DNA of 64,000 nt from TPA_inf: Saccharomyces (lineage: Eukaryota). Location: contig BK006938.2 of assembly GCA_000146045.2 (NCBI GenBank), forward strand, positions 1,467,934-1,531,933, written 5' to 3'. Below are positions 3,615 through 63,778 of the stretch, in pieces; the stretch's first letter is position 1, and the number at the start of each line of letters is the position of its first letter. Made by a program: the position numbers and the translations under genes. The notes beneath the pieces are model-generated. The model was given only the letters and a program-made list of their open reading frames with translations. It did not search any database and had not been told where the DNA came from.

Positions 3615-5066
3615 TCACACAAGAGTACTTTTGAAGGCTGCGCGTGCATTTTGAAACCAATGAGACCCGCTAAATTCCGTCTGAGGTACAAGATCCCTCG
3701 GCTTCTTTCTTCCCTTATCATCAACTTTCGGTTTGCTATTATTGGCATTCATCACACTTAGCACGTACGACATTGGCAAAATTTTGGGTTCGTCCGCCTC
3801 ACGCTTAAACCATTCTCTTATCCTATATCCCATTGTTTCTAAATCATCTGCCCCAATTTGCTTTCTAAAGTTATAATCTCCTAACTTCAGCATCAGGAGC
3901 AACGTGTAATATGCATCATTGCCTGCGTTATGTAAGAAGGCATGTGGCAAGTGAAAAAGCCTTAGTAGTTTACCTAAACTGCTACCCTTCTTGCCATAAC
4001 ACATGCTATAAATTTTCTCTGTGTCAAGCATCTTAACATGTTTTCTAACACCTTTGCTCTCCGTTGAGTCCTCCGGTTTGGTAAGTTCATTATCCAATTC
4101 AGGTACATGGACCCCAATTTTCTTCAGCCACTTAATATCCCCCGCTATAGCATGACCCACAAACGCTCTTTCCCAGGTTGTATCTTGGTCCGTCTCACAT
4201 TTCATATAGAAATTAATCAACGACTGAATGAACTCTACACATTGTTCCAATGGTAATACAAGACTTTCTCCAAGTAAAAAGCAGTCTTTAAAGTCGCATA
4301 CGAATTTCTTGTTTCTTAACGGTAACGCTTCAGCAACAATTAAATGATAACTTCTTATAATCGGCATCAAGGAATAAATGTTTTCTCTTGGATCATATAT
4401 GGCGATGCCAATCTCTGTAACAATGTCTGTATCAAATTCAAATGCCTCTACATCGATGGCAAAACAAATTGTCTTGTTGGATGATAATAACTCAATAGTT
4501 TTACAGAGATACTTGAACTGAGACCCACCAGGTTCACAATTCATCACAGGTATATGTTCGTTTTTTACGTCCTGTACATCTGCTAAATATTGCTTTCTTA
4601 GATTTTTCTCCACATCGTCTTTAGATGCATCAGGTATACACCCGTTTTTCTCTATCCATTTCTTGTCAATTTCTTCCAGCTTCTTATCCAGTAATTCTGA
4701 ACTTTTCTCATAGATGGACCGATAGTTTGTTTCCAATGCCTTTAAATATTTTTGGATTTCACTACTTAACGCAATGTTAGGGGTATATGCAATTTCGTGC
4801 AGAGAATTAAAATGTTCAAACTCATTTATCCATGTCTTTTGTCTTCCTAGTTTATTCATCAACTTGCTACTTGAACTCTTATACAGTCCCACGCCCCCTC
4901 TTCTTGAAGGGACCATACCCCTAACTCTAGCTGCATTGCGGGTTGCCAGACTCCTGTTTAAACCTTGTGGTTGATGGTAATTGCGGACTGCTTTGGAGTT
5001 GAATCTATGCGTAACCATTTTGACTACCGCTTCGTATGCTTTCTTGCACTTTGTGGAGCTACTCAT
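3615..5066 (-). CDS. YDR514C: Protein of unknown function, GFD2 paralog, 483 aa from the ATG at 5066. An upstream in-frame ATG at 5093 would give 492 aa.
   Basis: 492-aa ORF on the minus strand; position and length match YDR514C. Confidence 0.75.
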   Translation of the reverse strand: MSSSTKCKKAYEAVVKMVTHRFNSKAVRNYHQPQGLNRSLATRNAARVRGMVPSRRGGVGLYKSSSSKLMNKLGRQKTWINEFEHFNSLHEIAYTPNIALSSEIQKYLKALETNYRSIYEKSSELLDKKLEEIDKKWIEKNGCIPDASKDDVEKNLRKQYLADVQDVKNEHIPVMNCEPGGSQFKYLCKTIELLSSNKTICFAIDVEAFEFDTDIVTEIGIAIYDPRENIYSLMPIIRSYHLIVAEALPLRNKKFVCDFKDCFLLGESLVLPLEQCVEFIQSLINFYMKCETDQDTTWERAFVGHAIAGDIKWLKKIGVHVPELDNELTKPEDSTESKGVRKHVKMLDTEKIYSMCYGKKGSSLGKLLRLFHLPHAFLHNAGNDAYYTLLLMLKLGDYNFRKQIGADDLETMGYRIREWFKREADEPKILPMSYVLSVMNANNSKPKVDDKGRKKPRDLVPQTEFSGSHWFQNARAAFKSTLV

Positions 5067-5495
5067 ACAATAGCTTATAATCTGTGTAGTCAAACTATAT
5101 ACTAGGCAAATTACTAGTAAATGCAGTATTCATATGTCCTCAAACCGTTTTTTGCAGTATGTTATTGATCCATCGAATCAAAATTTTTCACCGCCAAGAG
5201 AAAAAAGATCTTACTATTTTGTGCTTATGAAAAAATTAGTAAAAGTAAAGCTGGAAGCACATACAAGCGCAGCTGAATCACAAAGGAAAATTGGCACATC
5301 CTTGGTTGACACTTGTCTATTTATTAAAAGGTTTTAAAAAGTAGTGTTCAGCAGTTCTATCATATTTTTTTATTTAAAAAAAAATACTGAGAGGAAGCGT
5401 ATTGTTAAGACACAATTTAGGGTGGCGTTAAATAAACGAGAGAGCCCAAAAATATAACCAAGATAAAGAAAATCAATCATAAAGTGAATTCAAAA

Positions 5496-7040: not shown

Positions 7041-8543
7041 TTATGCCACCAGAGCACACAAAGCTGCGCCAACACCGGACCCATCTTTGGCTAGACGCAA
7101 ATGTATCTTACGTTCACCCTCAGTGCCAATTGGACTTAATGCCAAAGCATGTCTCAGCATGGATCTGAATCCAGGATAGTATTCGATGACATAACCGTCA
7201 AAACCAATTTCTACCTCACCGTGATATCTTTTGTTCAAAGCGTTTGTCTTGATTAGGATGGCGGCAATCGGAACGGCTGCTAGATATGCAGACCTTCTCG
7301 TAATGGAACGGACCAGATTTTGAATTGCTTTACGTTCTTCAAAAGTGGTCGGTAGCCTCAAACTCTGCAAAAACGACAATTCAGTTTCACGCAAGTTTGT
7401 CGAATCATCGATTTCAATCCTGGAAAGAACTTCACTGCACAATTGGAAAGGAGTCTTTAAACGGTGAGGTAATTGATCGTAATTACGATACTGTCCCAAG
7501 ATTAAGCCCCTTGCATGCAAGTCCACCAGGATGTTCCTTAACAGCTCACCCAAGTACATGCCGGAAATTCTTTTTTCAAATAGATGGTAACCTGGATTTG
7601 GAGAAAATTTTTGGTCAATATCGATGTCATACTTTGTAGCAGACAAATGTTTCAATTCATTGTCGAAAGAACCCCATTCGATGTTGATGCACATTTGGGT
7701 TTTTCCTTCATGCAGCAGTCTTGTTCTGAGCTCATCTGGTAGCTTCTTGATGTTTTCAATATCCTCCATATAGCAACCGTTAGTACCAGTACCAAAGATA
7801 CAACCAATGACAGGCTCGCTAATCTCACCAGCACTCGATGGACGAGAGCCTGAAGTGTAGCAGTGGGATAGGAAAGTGCCAACCGTGTCGTTGGTCAAAG
7901 CTACCACATTAATCATAGAGAGCCCCTGAATGTCTAATTGCTCCTGGTATAACCTCACGACATCCTTGCCGACCGTGTCTTCAATCTTGAAGCTTTTGGT
8001 CCATCTGATTAAAGTACCGGAACTCAAAGAGGTTTGGTCAACGGGATATGAGAAGGTAAATCCCATTTTCAAAGGTTTTATGTTCTCCCCCGTGGACTTC
8101 AACAACTCAGGATGATGCTTCCTAACGAAGGCCCTTGTACGGCGACCCAGGTAGCTAAACAGCTCCTCGCTGGTGACATCCTTGTCATTTAGATATTCTT
8201 CCGGAATCTTAGACTTCAATTGCTGCATATCAAAGGTTCCGTCACCATTCAAAGTCACAGAACACACTCTGAAGTGAGTCCCACCTAAATCTGCAGCCAG
8301 CAAAACACCACGTTCCGTCCCATTGGGCAAACTGGTTACATATGTAGGGATCATGGGTAGACCCTTGTCCACCGTCTTTTCTTCGCCTACAGAGGTGTTA
8401 TTCAACCCCTTTTCCATACATTCAATGAAGTACGCTGTTAGTTCGTCCAACTTTGCTGCATCAACCTGCAATGAGGAGCAGATCTCAACCACTGCATCTT
8501 CCAATGCCTCAGCATTGACTTTATGTAAATTTTCAAATGACAT
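7041..8543 (-). CDS. EMI2: Hexokinase-family glucokinase paralog, 500 aa from the MSFENLHKV start
   Basis: 516-aa ORF; the internal ATG (complement of 8541-8543) gives 500 aa. Hexokinase motifs are present (LAADLGGTHFRV, GTGTNGCYME). Confidence 0.88.
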   Translation of the reverse strand: MSFENLHKVNAEALEDAVVEICSSLQVDAAKLDELTAYFIECMEKGLNNTSVGEEKTVDKGLPMIPTYVTSLPNGTERGVLLAADLGGTHFRVCSVTLNGDGTFDMQQLKSKIPEEYLNDKDVTSEELFSYLGRRTRAFVRKHHPELLKSTGENIKPLKMGFTFSYPVDQTSLSSGTLIRWTKSFKIEDTVGKDVVRLYQEQLDIQGLSMINVVALTNDTVGTFLSHCYTSGSRPSSAGEISEPVIGCIFGTGTNGCYMEDIENIKKLPDELRTRLLHEGKTQMCINIEWGSFDNELKHLSATKYDIDIDQKFSPNPGYHLFEKRISGMYLGELLRNILVDLHARGLILGQYRNYDQLPHRLKTPFQLCSEVLSRIEIDDSTNLRETELSFLQSLRLPTTFEERKAIQNLVRSITRRSAYLAAVPIAAILIKTNALNKRYHGEVEIGFDGYVIEYYPGFRSMLRHALALSPIGTEGERKIHLRLAKDGSGVGAALCALVA

Positions 8544-35380: not shown

Positions 35381-36967
35381 TTACAAAAAGATAACGGCAG
35401 CGAGCGCAGCGCCCATCAGACCCGTACCAGCGGCGATAGAATCAGCCGCACCCGTGTAATTCACGATTTGAGGAGTTGTGGACGACTTACCGTTAGTGAA
35501 AATACCAGCGGTAGTGGTTTGAACTCTTGTAATAGAGGATACCATTTTTGTGCTTGCAGAAGAACTTGATGACCAATTGTTACTTTCATGGGTACGAACA
35601 GATTGGGCATCCCTAGAAGAACTCTCTGTGTAAGCTTGCCCAATTCTAGTAGGAGTAACAATAGTAGCGCTTGACTCAGAGGAGGTGGTAGTAGATGCTA
35701 CAACTGCAGACGTGGATTTAGAATTAGAGGAATTTTCAGTAGTAGTAGAAGAAAAAGTTGGCACAACAGAAGAGGTTTTTGCAGCAGAAGAAGTCTCAAT
35801 AGGAGAAGAAGCCTGGACAGAAGATGAAAGAGAAGTCTGAGTAGGAGATAAGCTTTTAACAGAAGTGGTCTCGATAGTAGAGGAAGAAGAAGAAGTCTCA
35901 ACAGCAGAAGTCTCAACAGCAGAAGAAATCTCAACAGCAGAGGAAGTCTCAACGGCAGAGGAAGTCTCAGCAGCAGAGGAAGTCTCAGCAGCAGAAGAAG
36001 TCTCAACAGCAGAGGAAGTCTCAACAGCAGAGGAAGTCTCAACAGCAGAGGAAGTCTCAGCAGCAGAGGAAGTCTCAACAGCAGAAGAAGCCTCCACAAT
36101 AGAGGCCTCAGTAGTGGAGGGAATTTCAATAGCAGAAATACTAGAAGTTGCAACGGTGGAGGCAGGAGCGCGTTCACCCTCACCAGTCCATACGAAAGTA
36201 GCGTCCTGGGTGACGGTCTTTGTGTAGACATGTCCATTTTTGGTGGCTGTAATAGTGGTAGTTATACTCGAACCAGATCCTTCATCAGTAGAGGCAGAAG
36301 GTTCAGCAACAGATGTTACTGGAGAAGCAGCTGTTTCGACAGTAGCAACGGTTGAGACAGGAGCACGTTCACCCTCACCAGTCCATACGAAAGTAGCGTC
36401 CTGGGTGACGGTCTTTGTGTAGACATGTCCATTTTTGGTGGCTGTAATAGTGGTGGTTATACTCGAACCAGACCCTTCATCAGCAGAGGTGCCCTGAGCA
36501 GAGGTAGAAGGTTCAGCAACAGATGTTTCAGCGGCAACAGATGTTTCGACAGTAGCAACAGTTGAGGCAGGAGCACGTTCACCCTCTCCAGTCCATACGA
36601 AAGTAGCATCCTGGGTGACGGTCTTTGTGTAGACATGTCCATTTTTGGTGGCTGTAATAGTGGTGGTTATACTCGAACCAGACCCTTCATCAGCAGAGGT
36701 GCCCTGAGCAGAAGTGGAAGGCTCAACAATAGATGTTTCAGCGGCAACAGATGTTTCAGCGGCAGCAGACGTTGCAGCGACAGTAGACGCTTCAGTTACT
36801 GCGGAGGTTACCGCAGCGCCTTCTCCTGCCCAGACAAAAGTAGCATCTTGAGTGACAGTCTTGGTGTAAACATGCCCATTTTTGGTAGCAGTTATCGTAG
36901 TAGTAATACTTTCGCCTAAAGCGGCAACGGTGATAGCAGATAATACAAAAGCGGAAGACAATTTCAT
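35381..36967 (-). CDS. FIT1: GPI-anchored cell-wall mannoprotein, facilitator of iron (siderophore) transport, 528 aa, with internal tandem repeats
   Basis: Signal peptide MKLSSAFVLSAITVAALG, four copies of the ~65-70-aa repeat SITTTITATKNGHVYTKTVTQDATFVWTGEGERAP, and a Ser/Ala/Thr-rich C-terminal half with a GPI-like tail. Confidence 0.93.
   Translation of the reverse strand: MKLSSAFVLSAITVAALGESITTTITATKNGHVYTKTVTQDATFVWAGEGAAVTSAVTEASTVAATSAAAETSVAAETSIVEPSTSAQGTSADEGSGSSITTTITATKNGHVYTKTVTQDATFVWTGEGERAPASTVATVETSVAAETSVAEPSTSAQGTSADEGSGSSITTTITATKNGHVYTKTVTQDATFVWTGEGERAPVSTVATVETAASPVTSVAEPSASTDEGSGSSITTTITATKNGHVYTKTVTQDATFVWTGEGERAPASTVATSSISAIEIPSTTEASIVEASSAVETSSAAETSSAVETSSAVETSSAVETSSAAETSSAAETSSAVETSSAVEISSAVETSAVETSSSSSTIETTSVKSLSPTQTSLSSSVQASSPIETSSAAKTSSVVPTFSSTTTENSSNSKSTSAVVASTTTSSESSATIVTPTRIGQAYTESSSRDAQSVRTHESNNWSSSSSASTKMVSSITRVQTTTAGIFTNGKSSTTPQIVNYTGAADSIAAGTGLMGAALAAVIFL
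35889..36108 (-). repeat. 18-nt (hexapeptide ETSSAV/ETSSAA) coding minisatellite in FIT1, ~12 copies
   Basis: Tandem gaagtctcaacagcagag units. The antisense frames create spurious poly-Leu/Arg ORFs. Confidence 0.85.
36165..36915 (-). repeat. Four tandem ~195-210-nt coding repeats in FIT1 (fourth copy divergent)
   Basis: Near-identical blocks starting cgttcaccctcaccagtccatacgaaagtagcgtcctgggtgacggtctttgtgtagacatgtccatttttggtggctgtaatagtggt at 36171, 36366 and 36576, with a degenerate copy at ~36820. Confidence 0.85.
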
Positions 36968-37142: not shown

Positions 37143-37251
37143 TGCACCCTTTCCTAGAACTCGCGTATTGAGCCCTGAGGTGTCTGTCATTACATTATGC
37201 CAAATGTGCGACAGCGCGGTTTGGAACAAACAGGGTGCGGAACAGGGTGCA
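37143..37251. promoter_or_regulatory. Aft1/Aft2 iron-responsive elements in the FIT1 promoter (TGCACCC 37143-37149; GGGTGCG 37233-37239; GGGTGCA 37245-37251)
   Basis: Core GGGTGCA/TGCACCC motifs lie 175-285 bp upstream of the FIT1 ATG. FIT1 is a known Aft1 target. Confidence 0.6.
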
Positions 37252-37758
37252 CGGCATAGTTAAAAATGGAAGTTTTGGTGGGTTGTTTAAACTCTGATTG
37301 TAATTGGCGACCATTCACTGCTTATTTCGTTTATCTGGTAATTGTCAACATGGTAATGACCATCAAAACAGTAAACCCGATACTCGAAAAAGTGCTCAGC
37401 GCGATCACTGTCGTCTGGCCAATAACATTTTATAATAAAATACGTTTTTCCTGAAAGTATCAATTAGAAATAGCGATGCATAAACCGATTAATGTGAGAT
37501 CCTAATACTGTTCCATTTGTTAGTCTTTTTTCCACAATTGCTCCTCTTTTTTTCCTTTCAAAACTTATAGAAAAGTTCTTGATGATTAAATAATCAGTAA
37601 AAAAATACTGCCCAATAAGTTCAAAGCGATCACGAATATTTTAAGAACATATGGGAAGAAGATGGCACAGATTAACGATCGTTAACAAATTATGTACCAT
37701 AGAAGTATCAATTCTTCCAGTGTTGCACTTTAATGGAAATATAAGGATTAAAATAATG

Positions 37759-37858
37759 TTTCTCCATTGACTACCAAATAATTTTTCTCCATTGGCTACC
37801 AAATAATCTTTCTCCATTGGCTACCAAATAATCTTTCTTCATTGACTACCAAATAATC
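37759..37858. repeat. Perfect-phase 4 x 25-bp tandem repeat (tttctccattgGctaccaaataatc) in the FIT1-STL1 divergent spacer
   Basis: Units at 37759-37783, 37784-37808, 37809-37833 and 37834-37858. Units 2 and 3 are identical; units 1 and 4 differ at 2 positions each. Confidence 0.9.
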
Positions 37859-39417
37859 GATAAGATAAAATAGCACGAAGCGATATGAAAATACACAGTC
37901 GGCTAAAAATTTGTGGGTAATTTACCTTCTTGATGCATCAAAAATCGACTTTTTAAGAGTTAATAATCATTAACCTTATTCTGACGAAAATAGCAGCGTA
38001 TTTAACTCTATTGTACAAACATAATTTTCTTCTTATTGCGTTAGAGTTTCCTTTGCTATGGATCAATGAAATTGCAGATTACGAAAGAATCAAAAGAAAT
38101 AAAATCGGAAATCATGACATGTGCTATGGCCTGTGTTTCCAGGTGTAAAAGATAAAGCAGAACTAACCAAGTTCATTAGAAAAGTACAATACCAAATGGA
38201 AAGAAAAAGGAATTGTTCTTCTAAGCTAATCGGCAACCGCTTATAAAGTCTACCCCATTCAGTAAGATCGAATATCTTGGAGGTCATATATGTTCATTCA
38301 TCGGTGAGTGAGGATAATAGTGGCTTTTGTAAAAATTTTTATTATGGTGCTAATACACCATACTATTTCTGAGGCAACACCAAAGAAGGGTCCGAGAGTT
38401 CTTAGGCAGTAAAAAAGTTACACAGCCTCAGAAGACAGGGATCATGCAGTAAAAAAAAAAGCTCGATAATTTCATCGATCAATTGACCAGCCAATTTATT
38501 CTTATACCCTTATTTCTACCGATATAAACAGTTGGATAAACGGACAGGTTGAAGTGCAACGTTATTCAATGGTGACAGTTGCTTCTGGACTAAGAAAGGC
38601 TAGACCATGTGCCAGAAGTGCAGAAAAATGAAAGCAGAGAGCAAATAAAAAAACTCGACAAACATCGGAATATCAACCAGACAATAGCAAGTGGACACAA
38701 TGAAATAAAAATCTCACAGGCAAAAACGCACTTAAGGTGACGTAGATGCGTCCATCATTTAAACACGATACCAACATTATCTGATGTTTCAATGTTGAAA
38801 ACTGACATTCAAATATTCCGCAACCAGCGGACGAACTGAAGGAGCAGGCGACTACAATGCGCAGGGCGATTGGCGCGGTAACTTTGCCATGATCAAATAT
38901 TTGTGTAGCGCTTTGTTCACTATCGAACTTTCTAAATGAGTTAAGGAAGAGAAGAAAAACAATATGATACCGCAAATACGTATTCTCACCTAAAATGGCA
39001 AGGCAAAGCTTCGCCGAGGAATTCAGCCCGAGAGTAGAAAATTTACTAATGTGGTCTCGCGTGTGAATCAGCAATGATTCTGAAATACTCCTTTTACAAC
39101 CTTTGCAAAGATAATGTCTTTCAGTCTGATATTACGAGCGACCTAGAACCACTAATCCATATTCTTCATTCAACTTACTCCATTTTCCTTGGCAAACAAT
39201 GCCCCACAATCATATACGTCATAACTATAAGGGATATGTCTGGAATGCGGCCAAGATAGAATTAAAGGGCTGCAGAACACCACTACTGATACTCATTGCC
39301 AAGGCTAGGAGGCACCATCCGTTTCATTTTCTTTGAGGTAAGCCAATCATGAAATAGTATACACATCCATAACGGACGTACGGACGAAATAAGTGCCGTT
39401 GTCCCACTATTCCACCG

Positions 39418-39434
39418 CATTTGGCCCATTTGGC
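39418..39434. promoter_or_regulatory. Two adjacent CATTTGGC motifs (candidate Hot1-responsive elements) ~640 bp upstream of STL1
   Basis: gCATTTGGCcCATTTGGCt. As I recall it, Hot1 drives STL1 through a CATTTGGC-type element. TTGTCCC/TTTGTCC (reverse complement ~GGGACAA) also occur nearby at ~39399 and ~39484. Confidence 0.45.
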
Positions 39435-40071
39435 TCACTTTGACTCAACTTGCGTCATTTTAACTGATATGAAGGGTCCGACTTTGTCCTTTTTCGGCCA
39501 CCGCATACCCCACGGCGATGCCTCCGCTACCTGCATTTGAGTAGCATCTCCGTTTCGCGGGGTATTCGGCGCTACGTCGCCTGTTCGAGCGGCTCTGTTC
39601 GTTGCATGAAACTAAAATAAGCGGAAAGTGTCCAGCCATCCACTACGTCAGAAAGAAATAATGGTTGTACACTGTTTCTCGGCTATATACCGTTTTTGGT
39701 TGGTTAATCCTCGCCAGGTGCAGCTATTGCGCTTGGCTGCTTCGCGATAGTAGTAATCTGAGAAAGTGCAGATCCCGGTAAGGGAAACACTTTTGGTTCA
39801 CCTTTGATAGGGCTTTCATTGGGGCATTCGTAACAAAAAGGAAGTAGATAGAGAAATTGAGAAAGCTTAAGTGAGATGTTTTAGCTTCAATTTTGTCCCC
39901 TTCAACGCTGCTTGGCCTTAGAGGGTCAGAATTGCAGTTCAGGAGTAGTCACACTCATAGTATATAAACAAGCCCTTTATTGATTTTGAATAATTATTTT
40001 GTATACGTGTTCTAGCATACAAGTTAGAATAAATAAAAAATAGAAAAATAGAACATAGAAAGTTTTAGACC

Positions 40072-41781
40072 ATGAAGGATTTAAAATTATCGAATTTCAA
40101 AGGCAAATTTATAAGCAGAACCAGTCACTGGGGACTTACGGGTAAGAAGTTGCGGTATTTCATCACTATCGCATCTATGACGGGCTTCTCCCTGTTTGGA
40201 TACGACCAAGGGTTGATGGCAAGTCTAATTACTGGTAAACAGTTCAACTATGAATTTCCAGCAACCAAAGAAAATGGCGATCATGACAGACACGCAACTG
40301 TAGTGCAGGGCGCTACAACCTCCTGTTATGAATTAGGTTGTTTCGCAGGTTCTCTATTCGTTATGTTCTGCGGTGAAAGAATTGGTAGAAAACCATTAAT
40401 CCTGATGGGTTCCGTAATAACCATCATTGGTGCCGTTATTTCTACATGCGCATTTCGTGGTTACTGGGCATTAGGCCAGTTTATCATCGGAAGAGTCGTC
40501 ACCGGTGTTGGAACAGGGTTGAATACATCTACTATTCCCGTTTGGCAATCAGAAATGTCAAAAGCTGAAAATAGAGGGTTGCTGGTCAATTTAGAAGGTT
40601 CCACAATTGCTTTTGGTACTATGATTGCTTATTGGATTGATTTTGGGTTGTCTTATACCAACAGTTCTGTTCAGTGGAGATTCCCCGTGTCAATGCAAAT
40701 CGTTTTTGCTCTCTTCCTGCTTGCTTTCATGATTAAACTACCTGAATCGCCACGTTGGCTGATTTCTCAAAGTCGAACAGAAGAAGCTCGCTACTTGGTA
40801 GGAACACTAGACGACGCGGATCCAAATGATGAGGAAGTTATAACAGAAGTTGCTATGCTTCACGATGCTGTTAACAGGACCAAACACGAGAAACATTCAC
40901 TGTCAAGTTTGTTCTCCAGAGGCAGGTCCCAAAATCTTCAGAGGGCTTTGATTGCAGCTTCAACGCAATTTTTCCAGCAATTTACTGGTTGTAACGCTGC
41001 CATATACTACTCTACTGTATTATTCAACAAAACAATTAAATTAGACTATAGATTATCAATGATCATAGGTGGGGTCTTCGCAACAATCTACGCCTTATCT
41101 ACTATTGGTTCATTTTTTCTAATTGAAAAGCTAGGTAGACGTAAGCTGTTTTTATTAGGTGCCACAGGTCAAGCAGTTTCATTCACAATTACATTTGCAT
41201 GCTTGGTCAAAGAAAATAAAGAAAACGCAAGAGGTGCTGCCGTCGGCTTATTTTTGTTCATTACATTCTTTGGTTTGTCTTTGCTATCATTACCATGGAT
41301 ATACCCACCAGAAATTGCATCAATGAAAGTTCGTGCATCAACAAACGCTTTCTCCACATGTACTAATTGGTTGTGTAACTTTGCGGTTGTCATGTTCACC
41401 CCAATATTTATTGGACAGTCCGGTTGGGGTTGCTACTTATTTTTTGCTGTTATGAATTATTTATACATTCCAGTTATCTTCTTTTTCTACCCTGAAACCG
41501 CCGGAAGAAGTTTGGAGGAAATCGACATCATCTTTGCTAAAGCATACGAGGATGGCACTCAACCATGGAGAGTTGCTAACCATTTGCCCAAGTTATCCCT
41601 ACAAGAAGTCGAAGATCATGCCAATGCATTGGGCTCTTATGACGACGAAATGGAAAAAGAGGACTTTGGTGAAGATAGAGTAGAAGACACCTATAACCAA
41701 ATTAACGGCGATAATTCGTCTAGTTCTTCAAACATCAAAAATGAAGATACAGTGAACGATAAAGCAAATTTTGAGGGTTGA
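40072..41781 (+). CDS. STL1: Glycerol/H+ symporter of the sugar-transporter (MFS) family, 569 aa
   Basis: 12 predicted transmembrane segments and sugar-transporter signatures (GRKPLILMGS, PESPRWL, PETAGRSLEEID). Confidence 0.93.
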   Translation: MKDLKLSNFKGKFISRTSHWGLTGKKLRYFITIASMTGFSLFGYDQGLMASLITGKQFNYEFPATKENGDHDRHATVVQGATTSCYELGCFAGSLFVMFCGERIGRKPLILMGSVITIIGAVISTCAFRGYWALGQFIIGRVVTGVGTGLNTSTIPVWQSEMSKAENRGLLVNLEGSTIAFGTMIAYWIDFGLSYTNSSVQWRFPVSMQIVFALFLLAFMIKLPESPRWLISQSRTEEARYLVGTLDDADPNDEEVITEVAMLHDAVNRTKHEKHSLSSLFSRGRSQNLQRALIAASTQFFQQFTGCNAAIYYSTVLFNKTIKLDYRLSMIIGGVFATIYALSTIGSFFLIEKLGRRKLFLLGATGQAVSFTITFACLVKENKENARGAAVGLFLFITFFGLSLLSLPWIYPPEIASMKVRASTNAFSTCTNWLCNFAVVMFTPIFIGQSGWGCYLFFAVMNYLYIPVIFFFYPETAGRSLEEIDIIFAKAYEDGTQPWRVANHLPKLSLQEVEDHANALGSYDDEMEKEDFGEDRVEDTYNQINGDNSSSSSNIKNEDTVNDKANFEG

Positions 41782-57428: not shown

Positions 57429-57535
57429 GCTTCTCTCTGGTGTGGGTGTGTGGGTGTGTGGGTGTGGTGTGGGTGTGGGTGTGGTGTGGGTGTGGTGGGT
57501 GTGGTGTGGTGTGTGTGGGTGTGGTGTGGTGTGTA
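57429..57535 (+). repeat. Internal TG(1-3) telomeric repeat tract between X and Y'
   Basis: ~107 bp of irregular (TG)1-3 repeats (tggtgtgggtgtgtgggtgtg...). The G-rich strand runs 5'->3' towards the window end, as expected for a right telomere. Confidence 0.92.
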
Positions 57536-61300: not shown

Positions 61301-63778
61301 GGACTGGCCAAGAAGTCGATGGACATCAACGAGCTCAAACGGTCGGAAGATCTCAGCAGAGGTCTATCCAGCTATCCAACACGGATGTTTAATCTAATCA
61401 AGGAGAAATCCGAGGTGCCTTTAGGGCATGTTCATAAAATTTGGAAGAAAGTGGAATCACAGCCCGAAGAAGCACTGAAGCTTCTTTTAGCCCTCTTTGA
61501 AATTGAACCAGAGTCGAAGGCCATTGTAGTTGCAAGCACAACCAACGAAGTGGAAGAATTGGCCTGCTCTTGGAGAAAGTATTTTAGGGTGGTATGGATA
61601 CACGGGAAGCTGGGTGCTGCAGAAAAGGTGTCTCGCACAAAGGAGTTTGTCACTGACGGTAGCATGCGAGTTCTCATCGGAACGAAATTAGTGACTGAAG
61701 GAATTGACATTAAGCAATTGATGATGGTGATCATGCTTGATAATAGACTTAATATTATTGAGCTCATTCAAGGCGTAGGGAGACTAAGAGATGGGGGCCT
61801 CTGTTATCTATTATCTAGAAAAAACAGTTGGGCGGCAAGGAATCGTAAGGGTGAATTACCACCGATTAAGGAAGGCTGTATAACCGAACAGGTACGCGAG
61901 TTCTATGGACTTGAATCAAAGAAAGGAAAAAAGGGCCAGCATGTTGGATGCTGTGGCTCCAGGACAGACCTGTCTGCTGACACAGTGGAACTGATAGAAA
62001 GAATGGACAGATTGGCTGAAAAACAGGCGACAGCTTCCATGTCGATCATTGCGTTACCGTCTAGCTTCCAGGAGAGCAATAGCAGTGACAGGTGCAGAAA
62101 GTATTGCAGCAGTGATGAGGACAGCGACACGTGCATTCATGGTAGTGCTAATGCCAGTACCAATGCGACTACCAACTCCAGCACTAATGCTACTACCACT
62201 GCCAGCACCAACGTCAGGACTAGTGCTACTACCACTGCCAGCATCAACGTCAGGACTAGTGCGATTACCACTGAAAGTACCAACTCCAGCACTAATGCTA
62301 CTACCACTGCCAGCACCAACGTCAGGACTAGTGCTACTACCACTGCCAGCATCAACGTCAGGACTAGTGCGACTACCACTGAAAGTACCAACTCCAACAC
62401 TAGTGCTACTACCACCGAAAGTACCGACTCCAACACTAGTGCTACTACCACCGAAAGTACCGACTCCAACACTAGTGCTACTACCACTGCTAGCACCAAC
62501 TCCAGCACTAATGCCACTACCACTGCTAGCACCAACTCCAGCACTAATGCCACTACCACTGAAAGTACCAACGCTAGTGCCAAGGAGGACGCCAATAAAG
62601 ATGGCAATGCTGAGGATAATAGATTCCATCCAGTCACCGACATTAACAAAGAGTCGTATAAGCGGAAAGGGAGTCAAATGGTTTTGCTAGAGAGAAAGAA
62701 ACTGAAAGCACAATTTCCCAATACTTCCGAGAATATGAATGTCTTACAGTTTCTTGGATTTCGGTCTGACGAAATTAAACATCTTTTCCTCTATGGTATT
62801 GACGTATACTTCTGCCCAGAGGGAGTATTCACACAATACGGATTATGCAAGGGCTGTCAAAAGATGTTCGAGCTCTGTGTCTGTTGGGCTGGCCAGAAAG
62901 TATCGTATCGGAGGATGGCTTGGGAAGCACTAGCTGTGGAGAGAATGCTGCGAAATGACGAGGAATACAAAGAATACTTGGAAGACATCGAGCCATATCA
63001 TGGGGACCCTGTAGGATATTTGAAATATTTTAGCGTAAAAAGGGGAGAGATCTACTCTCAGATACAGAGAAATTATGCTTGGTACCTGGCCATTACTAGA
63101 AGAAGAGAAACAATTAGTGTATTGGATTCGACAAGAGGCAAGCAAGGGAGCCAAGTTTTCCGCATGTCTGGAAGGCAGATCAAAGAGTTGTATTATAAAG
63201 TATGGAGCAACTTGCGTGAATCGAAGACAGAGGTGCTGCAGTACTTTTTGAACTGGGACGAGAAAAAGTGCCGGGAAGAATGGGAGGCAAAAGACGATAC
63301 GGTCTTTGTGGAAGCGCTCGAGAAAGTTGGAGTTTTTCAGCGTTTGCGTTCCATGACGAGCGCTGGACTGCAGGGTCCGCAGTACGTCAAGCTGCAGTTT
63401 AGCAGGCATCATCGACAGTTGAGGAGCAGATATGAATTAAGTCTAGGAATGCACTTGCGAGATCAGCTTGCGCTGGGAGTTACCCCATCTAAAGTGCCGC
63501 ATTGGACGGCATTCCTGTCGATGCTGATAGGGCTGTTCTACAATAAAACATTTCGGCAGAAACTGGAATATCTTTTGGAGCAGATTTCGGAGGTGTGGTT
63601 GTTACCACATTGGCTTGATTTGGCAAACGTTGAAGTTCTCGCTGCAGATAACACGAGGGTACCGCTGTACATGCTGATGGTAGCGGTTCACAAAGAGCTG
63701 GATAGCGATGATGTTCCAGACGGTAGATTTGATATAATATTACTATGTAGAGATTCGAGCAGAGAAGTTGGAGAGTGA
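58388..63778 (+). CDS. YRF1-1: Y'-encoded DEAD/DExH-type helicase, 1796 aa
   Basis: A single 1796-aa ORF with Walker A-like [10 protein letters not shown], the DEFH box [10 protein letters not shown] and helicase C-terminal motifs ([12 protein letters not shown]), plus an internal Ser/Thr/Asn/Ala-rich 12-aa tandem repeat. Confidence 0.92.
62150..62590 (+). repeat. 36-nt (12-aa) coding tandem repeat, ~12 copies, inside YRF1
   Basis: Repeating accaactccagcactaatgctactaccactgccagc / accaacgtcaggactagtgctactaccactgccagc variants encoding [26 protein letters not shown]... Confidence 0.9.

Follow-up and report, generated by a model that had tools for sequence, protein, structure and literature searches.

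A 25-bp tandem repeat of variable copy number in the FIT1-STL1 intergenic spacer of Saccharomyces cerevisiae, probably a young and largely unconstrained minisatellite

Introduction

Most minisatellites of Saccharomyces cerevisiae lie in coding sequences. In the summary that PMC2566889 gives of the Richard and Dujon catalogue, 11 of the 66 are intergenic, and these are short, low in GC (~29%), polymorphic, and not conserved. The same summary describes a replication-slippage model of minisatellite birth that fits almost all of the S. cerevisiae examples, with flanking repeats of ~5 nt on average. Short tandem repeats of all kinds are present in ~25% of yeast promoters (PMC3899988), and in the account given there of the work of Vinces et al. 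(2009) changes in the copy number of promoter repeats change expression. Short units in tandem also make up the Hog1-responsive element (HoRE), which experiments have defined as the Hot1 site of the STL1 promoter (PMC4462951); it consists of two copies of CATTTGGC and one of CACTTTGAC between -654 and -626.

Here we describe a 25-bp tandem array in the spacer between the divergent genes FIT1 and STL1, and compare it with these systems. The window analysed is a 64,000-nucleotide stretch of S. cerevisiae DNA (GCA_000146045.2, contig BK006938.2, positions 1,467,934 to 1,531,933, forward strand), and all positions are those of this window unless otherwise stated. The original prediction, made from the letters alone, remarked that non-coding minisatellites are uncommon in yeast, which agrees with the published proportion as summarised above, and proposed that the array may act as a multimer of factor-binding sites or serve to position nucleosomes. 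We conclude instead, with a probability of about 0.7, that it is a young, largely unconstrained intergenic variable number tandem repeat (VNTR) which, of the species sampled, only S. cerevisiae possesses.

Organization of the FIT1-STL1 spacer

FIT1, the gene nearest to the array, is an open reading frame (ORF) of 528 codons on the reverse strand (35381-36967) with a weak match to the Pfam family FIT1_2, and HSP31 (DJ-1/PfpI family) lies beyond it. On the other side STL1 (40072-41781, forward strand) encodes a 569-residue sugar transporter identical to S. cerevisiae proteins named Stl1p. The divergent spacer between them is 3104 bp long, and the array is located 784-891 bp upstream of the FIT1 ATG and 2214-2321 bp upstream of the STL1 ATG, so that the ORFs, Pfam match and protein identity show the gene context and distances to have been correctly described.

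Two regulatory regions share the spacer with the array. The first is a conserved proximal FIT1 control region (37143-37251), in contrast to the unconserved array, with Aft1-type sites at its ends (TGCACCC at 37143-37149 on the forward strand and GGGTGCA at 37245-37251). The second is the STL1 HoRE at 39418-39444 on the forward strand (PMC4462951), 1.56 kb from the array. The HoRE is in effect a miniature tandem array of CATTTGGC-type units with a 9-10-bp period; its position is conserved among Saccharomyces species and its unit count differs between them (7343-7370 in locus L015; 7320-7354 in locus L011), with extra units in S. arboricola.

Tandem repeats are also present elsewhere in the window. 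Within FIT1 itself (35888-36795, reverse strand) there are coding minisatellites of 18 bp (11.9 copies) and 210 bp (2.8 copies) together with further 18-bp arrays, and these are far more variable than the upstream 25-bp array; the FIT1 products of other strains range from 205 to 658 residues, although gene calling may be at fault for some of the short ones. Further to the right an interstitial TG1-3 telomere-like tract (57438-57534) is followed by 12-, 36- and 108-bp arrays (62150-62572), a sequence arrangement consistent with passage of the window across an X/Y' subtelomeric junction into a Y' element and the minisatellite known from such elements.

Structure of the 25-bp array

Tandem Repeats Finder reports the array at 37751-37858 with a period of 25, 4.3 copies, 93% matches, no indels, and a score of 181, and find_repeats also picks it out (family D1). 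By estimate this interval corresponds to chrIV 1,505,684-1,505,791 of the S288C reference. It begins with an 8-nt partial copy, AAATAATG (37751-37758), followed by four 25-bp units, and the consensus TTTCTCCATTGGCTACCAAATAATC is matched at 37759, 37784, 37809, and 37834 with 2, 0, 0, and 2 mismatches, respectively. No consensus match was seen in any of 100 dinucleotide-preserving shuffles of the window, and the array therefore has what is expected of a VNTR in this respect, i.e. head-to-tail units of ~10-100 bp occurring far above chance. The predicted four-unit repeat, with an identical inner pair and two changes in each outer unit, is thus borne out.

Unit 1 (37759-37783, forward strand as for all four) is TTTCTCCATTGACTACCAAATAATT, an A variant without CCAAT, whose terminal T is found only on the S288C-like haplotype. 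Unit 2 (37784-37808) has the consensus sequence, a G variant with CCAAT on the reverse strand at 37791-37795, and unit 3 (37809-37833) repeats it letter for letter, with CCAAT on the reverse strand at 37816-37820; it is this interior G-type unit that is gained or lost in the three- and five-unit alleles. Unit 4 (37834-37858) is TTTCTTCATTGACTACCAAATAATC, again an A variant, and is retained in every allele and is the nearest match to the lone unit of S. paradoxus. Every unit shares the invariant CATTG...CTACCAAATAAT, whereas the ATTGG (CCAAT) motif originally attributed to each of them is present in units 2 and 3 only, units 1 and 4 reading ATTGAC. The 7-nt sequence AAATAAT ends every unit and is also found directly before unit 1, so that the founding unit is bracketed by short direct repeats as in a slippage birth.

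The unit does not occur elsewhere in the 64-kb window, and all matches in metagenomes (three contigs) are from the FIT1/STL1 locus. The idea of a dispersed repeat was dropped on these grounds. Two of these contigs carry a two-unit allele and the third breaks off inside the array.

Copy number variation in S. cerevisiae

The locus was recovered from other strains via contigs encoding different STL1 protein alleles, and the sequence between conserved flanks was excised. Among 47 assemblies so obtained, a non-random sample drawn through a few STL1 protein alleles that may not include deep wild lineages of S. cerevisiae, one assembly has three full units, three have five, 15 have four (as does the window), 23 have two, and five have a single unit on a spacer of S. 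paradoxus type. The suggestion that copy number could vary between strains is therefore confirmed, with a range of one to five units, and the array is a VNTR in the strict sense of being polymorphic within the species. Eight distinct array sequences are present in the first 40 assemblies. The same alleles recur across assemblies of different projects, and they are therefore unlikely to be assembly artefacts.

The flanking sequences fall into two haplotype groups that differ by ~25-30 SNPs per 2.95 kb, one carrying two units and the other three to five. Within the latter, interior units have been gained or lost independently three times or more, as represented by locus L022 (three units), the allele shared by L023 and L055 (five units), and separately L020 (five units), so that changes have recurred on one haplotype group. 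Variants inside units (G at unit position 25 and TTG at the unit start) are common to neighbouring units in L018 and L020, indicating turnover of units within the array. The two-unit array, on the other hand, is invariant in sequence in all 23 assemblies that carry it, as would be explained if a short array of non-identical units is more stable.

The five single-unit assemblies (L050-L054) are labelled as S. cerevisiae, and their FIT1-STL1 spacers are 99.8% identical to that of S. paradoxus. They have STL1 allele P0124 (e.g. strain YJM248), and their downstream genes are spaced as in S. paradoxus (locus L015). This indicates an introgressed subtelomeric segment, and strains without the array therefore exist in nature.

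Comparison with other Saccharomyces species

The gene order HSP31-FIT1-STL1 is maintained in S. paradoxus and S. kudriavzevii, and in S. arboricola tblastn also places FIT1 upstream of STL1. In S. uvarum (locus L012, 4130-8000) an NMT1/THI5-like gene with SNZ/SNO neighbours is located upstream of STL1 instead of FIT1, and the FIT1-STL1 divergent arrangement is therefore not common to all Saccharomyces species.

The spacers of S. paradoxus and S. kudriavzevii contain no comparable tandem repeat. A search for the unit with up to seven mismatches allowed gave a single match in S. kudriavzevii, with six mismatches, and none in S. paradoxus, S. arboricola, or S. uvarum. In a four-species alignment, the orthologous site of S. 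paradoxus corresponds to exactly one unit, TTTCTCTGTTGACTACAAGTAATC, with flanks that can be aligned on both sides. This unit is not flanked by the 7-nt repeat, and it carries A where the units of S. cerevisiae have G or A, and contains no CCAAT. The G that forms CCAAT in S. cerevisiae is thus derived.

The array is located in the part of the spacer that is least conserved, a region of ~500 bp. Identity between S. cerevisiae and S. paradoxus in the four-species alignment is 4-57% over 37540-38100, compared to 94% in the region of the Aft1-type sites and 86-89% in the STL1 promoter. Variation within S. cerevisiae follows a similar pattern: pi is 7-13 per kb beside the array, no lower than the average for the spacer (6.3), and falls to 3.0 per kb in the Aft1 region and 0.7-1.6 per kb in the Hot1 element. 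Nothing in S. paradoxus aligns with the ~130 bp just upstream of the array (37600-37733), and in S. kudriavzevii and S. arboricola only fragments do; the array thus adjoins an indel-rich stretch.

Search for coding, structural and binding-site signals

Several other explanations of the array were considered and rejected. It is not coding, as no ORF of 60 residues or more crosses it and the period of 25 is not a multiple of three. A structured or known non-coding RNA was rejected because Rfam searches across the whole spacer gave no match at E ≤ 1, and because neither strand of the array has a folding signal by DNA or RNA folding (z = 0.11 and 0.14), i.e. the folds are no more stable than those of shuffled sequences. 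A replication origin was rejected because the spacer contains no exact match to the ARS consensus WTTTAYRTTTW; the window has four matches, all of them elsewhere. A tRNA scan of the window, for a neighbouring gene that could hint at a Ty or LTR remnant, found no tRNA gene.

No convincing transcription factor match was found in the array. The Hap2/3/4/5 (HAP) consensus is CCAATNA, and a HAP module was rejected because CCAAT is in units 2 and 3 only, and there as CCAATGG, with GTCAATGG in units 1 and 4; the two-unit allele has a single CCAAT. The consensus sequences for the Mcm1 CArG half-site, the alpha1 Q-box, Rox1, Tec1, and the Yap/Gcn4 half-site, and those for Rim101, Rfx1, Smp1/Rlm1, Vhr1, and GATA factors, give only partial matches to the unit, and these were discounted because they are no better than expected after many motifs have been tried. 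We found no literature linking FIT1 or YDR534C to a tandem repeat or minisatellite, or the array to FIT1 regulation; in PMC6548505 the YDR535C locus serves only as an ectopic integration site.

Relationship of the array to FIT1 and STL1 regulation

The array could act as a distal element of the FIT1 promoter that is tunable by copy number, through factor binding or local chromatin, such that alleles with two, four, and five units differ in expression. Like the repeats of Vinces et al. it is polymorphic and less than 1 kb upstream of a gene, variable repeats in yeast promoters are reported to alter expression in the account of PMC3899988, each G-type unit contains a CCAAT core, and the invariant core noted above is shared by all units. 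However, the repeats reported to exclude nucleosomes are AT-rich or poly(dA:dT)-like, whereas the array resembles neither poly(dA:dT) nor AT dinucleotides and lacks the composition that disfavours nucleosomes: its GC content of 31% is the same as in its flanks (26-36%), with no compositional anomaly and no AT excess, and its longest run of A or T is 5, compared to up to 10 elsewhere in the spacer. The 25-bp period corresponds to 2.4 helical turns, which would give the units no shared rotational setting. Half of the units lack CCAAT, and the form that is present misfits the HAP consensus. Furthermore, the array is distal to the conserved upstream activating sequence (UAS), beyond the FIT1 control region, it is missing in other species, and five strains do without it. 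Non-conservation is not decisive by itself, as a gain of regulation in one lineage is compatible with it, but overall we regard a tunable FIT1 element as unlikely.

A more specific form of regulation is suggested by similarity to the HoRE (Bai et al. 2015), as both are composed of short related units in tandem with a CATT(T)GG-type core and both lie in the same spacer. The top-strand CATTGGC is the HoRE unit CATTTGGC less one T, the bottom-strand TATTTGGT has the same ATTTGG core, and together these form an imperfect palindrome in each unit. The units could thus be multimerised Hot1-type sites in degenerate form, through which FIT1 would respond to osmostress by way of Hog1. Active Hog1 induces FIT1 5.2-fold, although a search of the FIT1 promoter revealed no HoRE (PMC4462951). 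On addition of KCl the occupancy of FIT1 by Pol II rises ~5-fold in the wild type (5310 to 26800), but shows no such rise in hog1-delta (4350 to 3980) or sko1-delta hot1-delta (5060 to 5270) cells (PMC3429927, File S3). Osmostress induction of FIT1 accordingly needs Hog1 and Sko1/Hot1 (PMC4462951; PMC3429927), and each G-type unit has two matches to CATTTGGC at up to two mismatches, compared to about one per 103 bp in the rest of the spacer.

The correspondence is nevertheless poor in several respects. The period of the HoRE is 9-10 bp, the element is shared by the Saccharomyces species, and experiments show that STL1 induction requires it, whereas the array has a 25-bp period, is species-specific, and differs from the HoRE unit by at least two mismatches, there being no array match to CATTTGGC at one mismatch or fewer. 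Neither the Hot1 and Sko1 matrices (PMC3429927) nor the HoRE consensus (PMC4462951) finds a convincing match in the array, the best score with the Hot1 ChIP-seq matrix being 544 of 1566, below the 99.9th percentile of the spacer (836). Point mutations in the HoRE repeats lower activity, and one of the two changes in RM9 that abolish binding (C8 to T) is already T in TATTTGGT (PMC4462951). Moreover, since the units are all copies of one original, the similarity amounts to a single post hoc observation.

Simpler candidates for this regulation are also available. One is bidirectional action of, or divergent transcription from, the STL1 HoRE. Another is an exact HoRE unit, CATTTGGC, on the reverse strand at 37199-37206, 232 bp upstream of FIT1 and between the conserved Aft1-type sites; among the four aligned species the exact form is found in S. 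cerevisiae only, S. paradoxus having GCCAAAATG, and this copy may underlie the dependence of FIT1 on Hot1 that has been reported. We therefore consider it very improbable that the array couples FIT1 to Hog1 through Hot1-type sites. A recently born, S. cerevisiae-specific UAS of adjustable copy number, in which degenerate CATT(T)GG sites would recruit Hot1 (with Hog1 and Sko1), is judged to be equally improbable; if it were true, it would account for the Hot1/Hog1 dependence of FIT1 and would be an instance of minisatellite birth creating a new regulatory link, beside the canonical Hot1 target STL1.

The array also lies within the divergent spacer that STL1 shares, and might be a distal upstream element of that gene. 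It is, however, 2.2 kb from the STL1 ATG, and a 704-bp STL1 promoter, which does not include it, gives full (~64-fold) induction by salt (PMC4462951); the array is thus not needed for salt induction of STL1. The HoRE is necessary for this induction and a short HoRE-bearing fragment renders a heterologous promoter osmo-inducible (PMC4462951), and STL1 has a different upstream neighbour in S. uvarum. A role in STL1 expression is scarcely credible.

The proposal that the array is a multimer of factor-binding sites or positions nucleosomes is thus unsupported: CCAAT is in half of the units and arises from a derived G, the array is missing from S. paradoxus, S. kudriavzevii, and S. arboricola and falls where the spacer is conserved least, its composition is that of its flanks, and STL1 is fully osmo-inducible without it. 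Absence or lack of constraint in related strains had been named at the outset as an outcome that would speak against function, and this is what we observe. Across the regulatory explanations as a whole, a modest lineage-specific effect of the array on FIT1 expression is a tentative possibility, and a doubtful one.

Discussion

The preferred interpretation of the array is that of a young intergenic VNTR under little constraint, and its origin may be reconstructed as follows. A 25-bp stretch that is still single-copy in S. paradoxus would have become flanked by AAATAAT in the S. cerevisiae lineage. The first duplication most likely occurred by slippage or unequal sister-chromatid exchange between the AAATAAT repeats, as in the published model. 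Once two or more near-identical units were present, slippage or recombination would have added and removed interior units to generate alleles with two, three, four, and five units, and the variation among these alleles is directly observed. The array lies in the distal portion of a long subtelomeric spacer, where constraint is low, outside both the conserved Aft1 region of FIT1 and the functional STL1 promoter. Given this position, it has presumably persisted because selection on it is weak or absent, and not because it has a regulatory role.

The array is non-coding, unlike most minisatellites of yeast, including those inside FIT1, and resembles the rare intergenic class of S. cerevisiae. It has a unit longer than 10 bp, few copies, and a GC content of ~30%, and it shares with that class, as far as the summary cited in the Introduction characterises it, flanking short direct repeats, variation in size between strains, and lack of conservation in related yeasts. 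The VNTRs of human promoters (e.g. the 30-bp repeat upstream of MAOA, and that of INS) similarly consist of few units of 14-30 bp located ~0.4-1.2 kb upstream and polymorphic in copy number, with allele-dependent effects on expression reported. The array is like these in being composed of few short units upstream of a gene and in its polymorphic copy number.

As it stands the array itself matters little. It is a well-behaved example of minisatellite birth, in which one unit in the sister species has become two to five in S. cerevisiae with the flanking repeats still visible, and it is a possible marker for strain typing. If copy number affected FIT1, the natural alleles with one, two, three, four, and five units would be well suited to the idea that promoter VNTRs tune gene expression.
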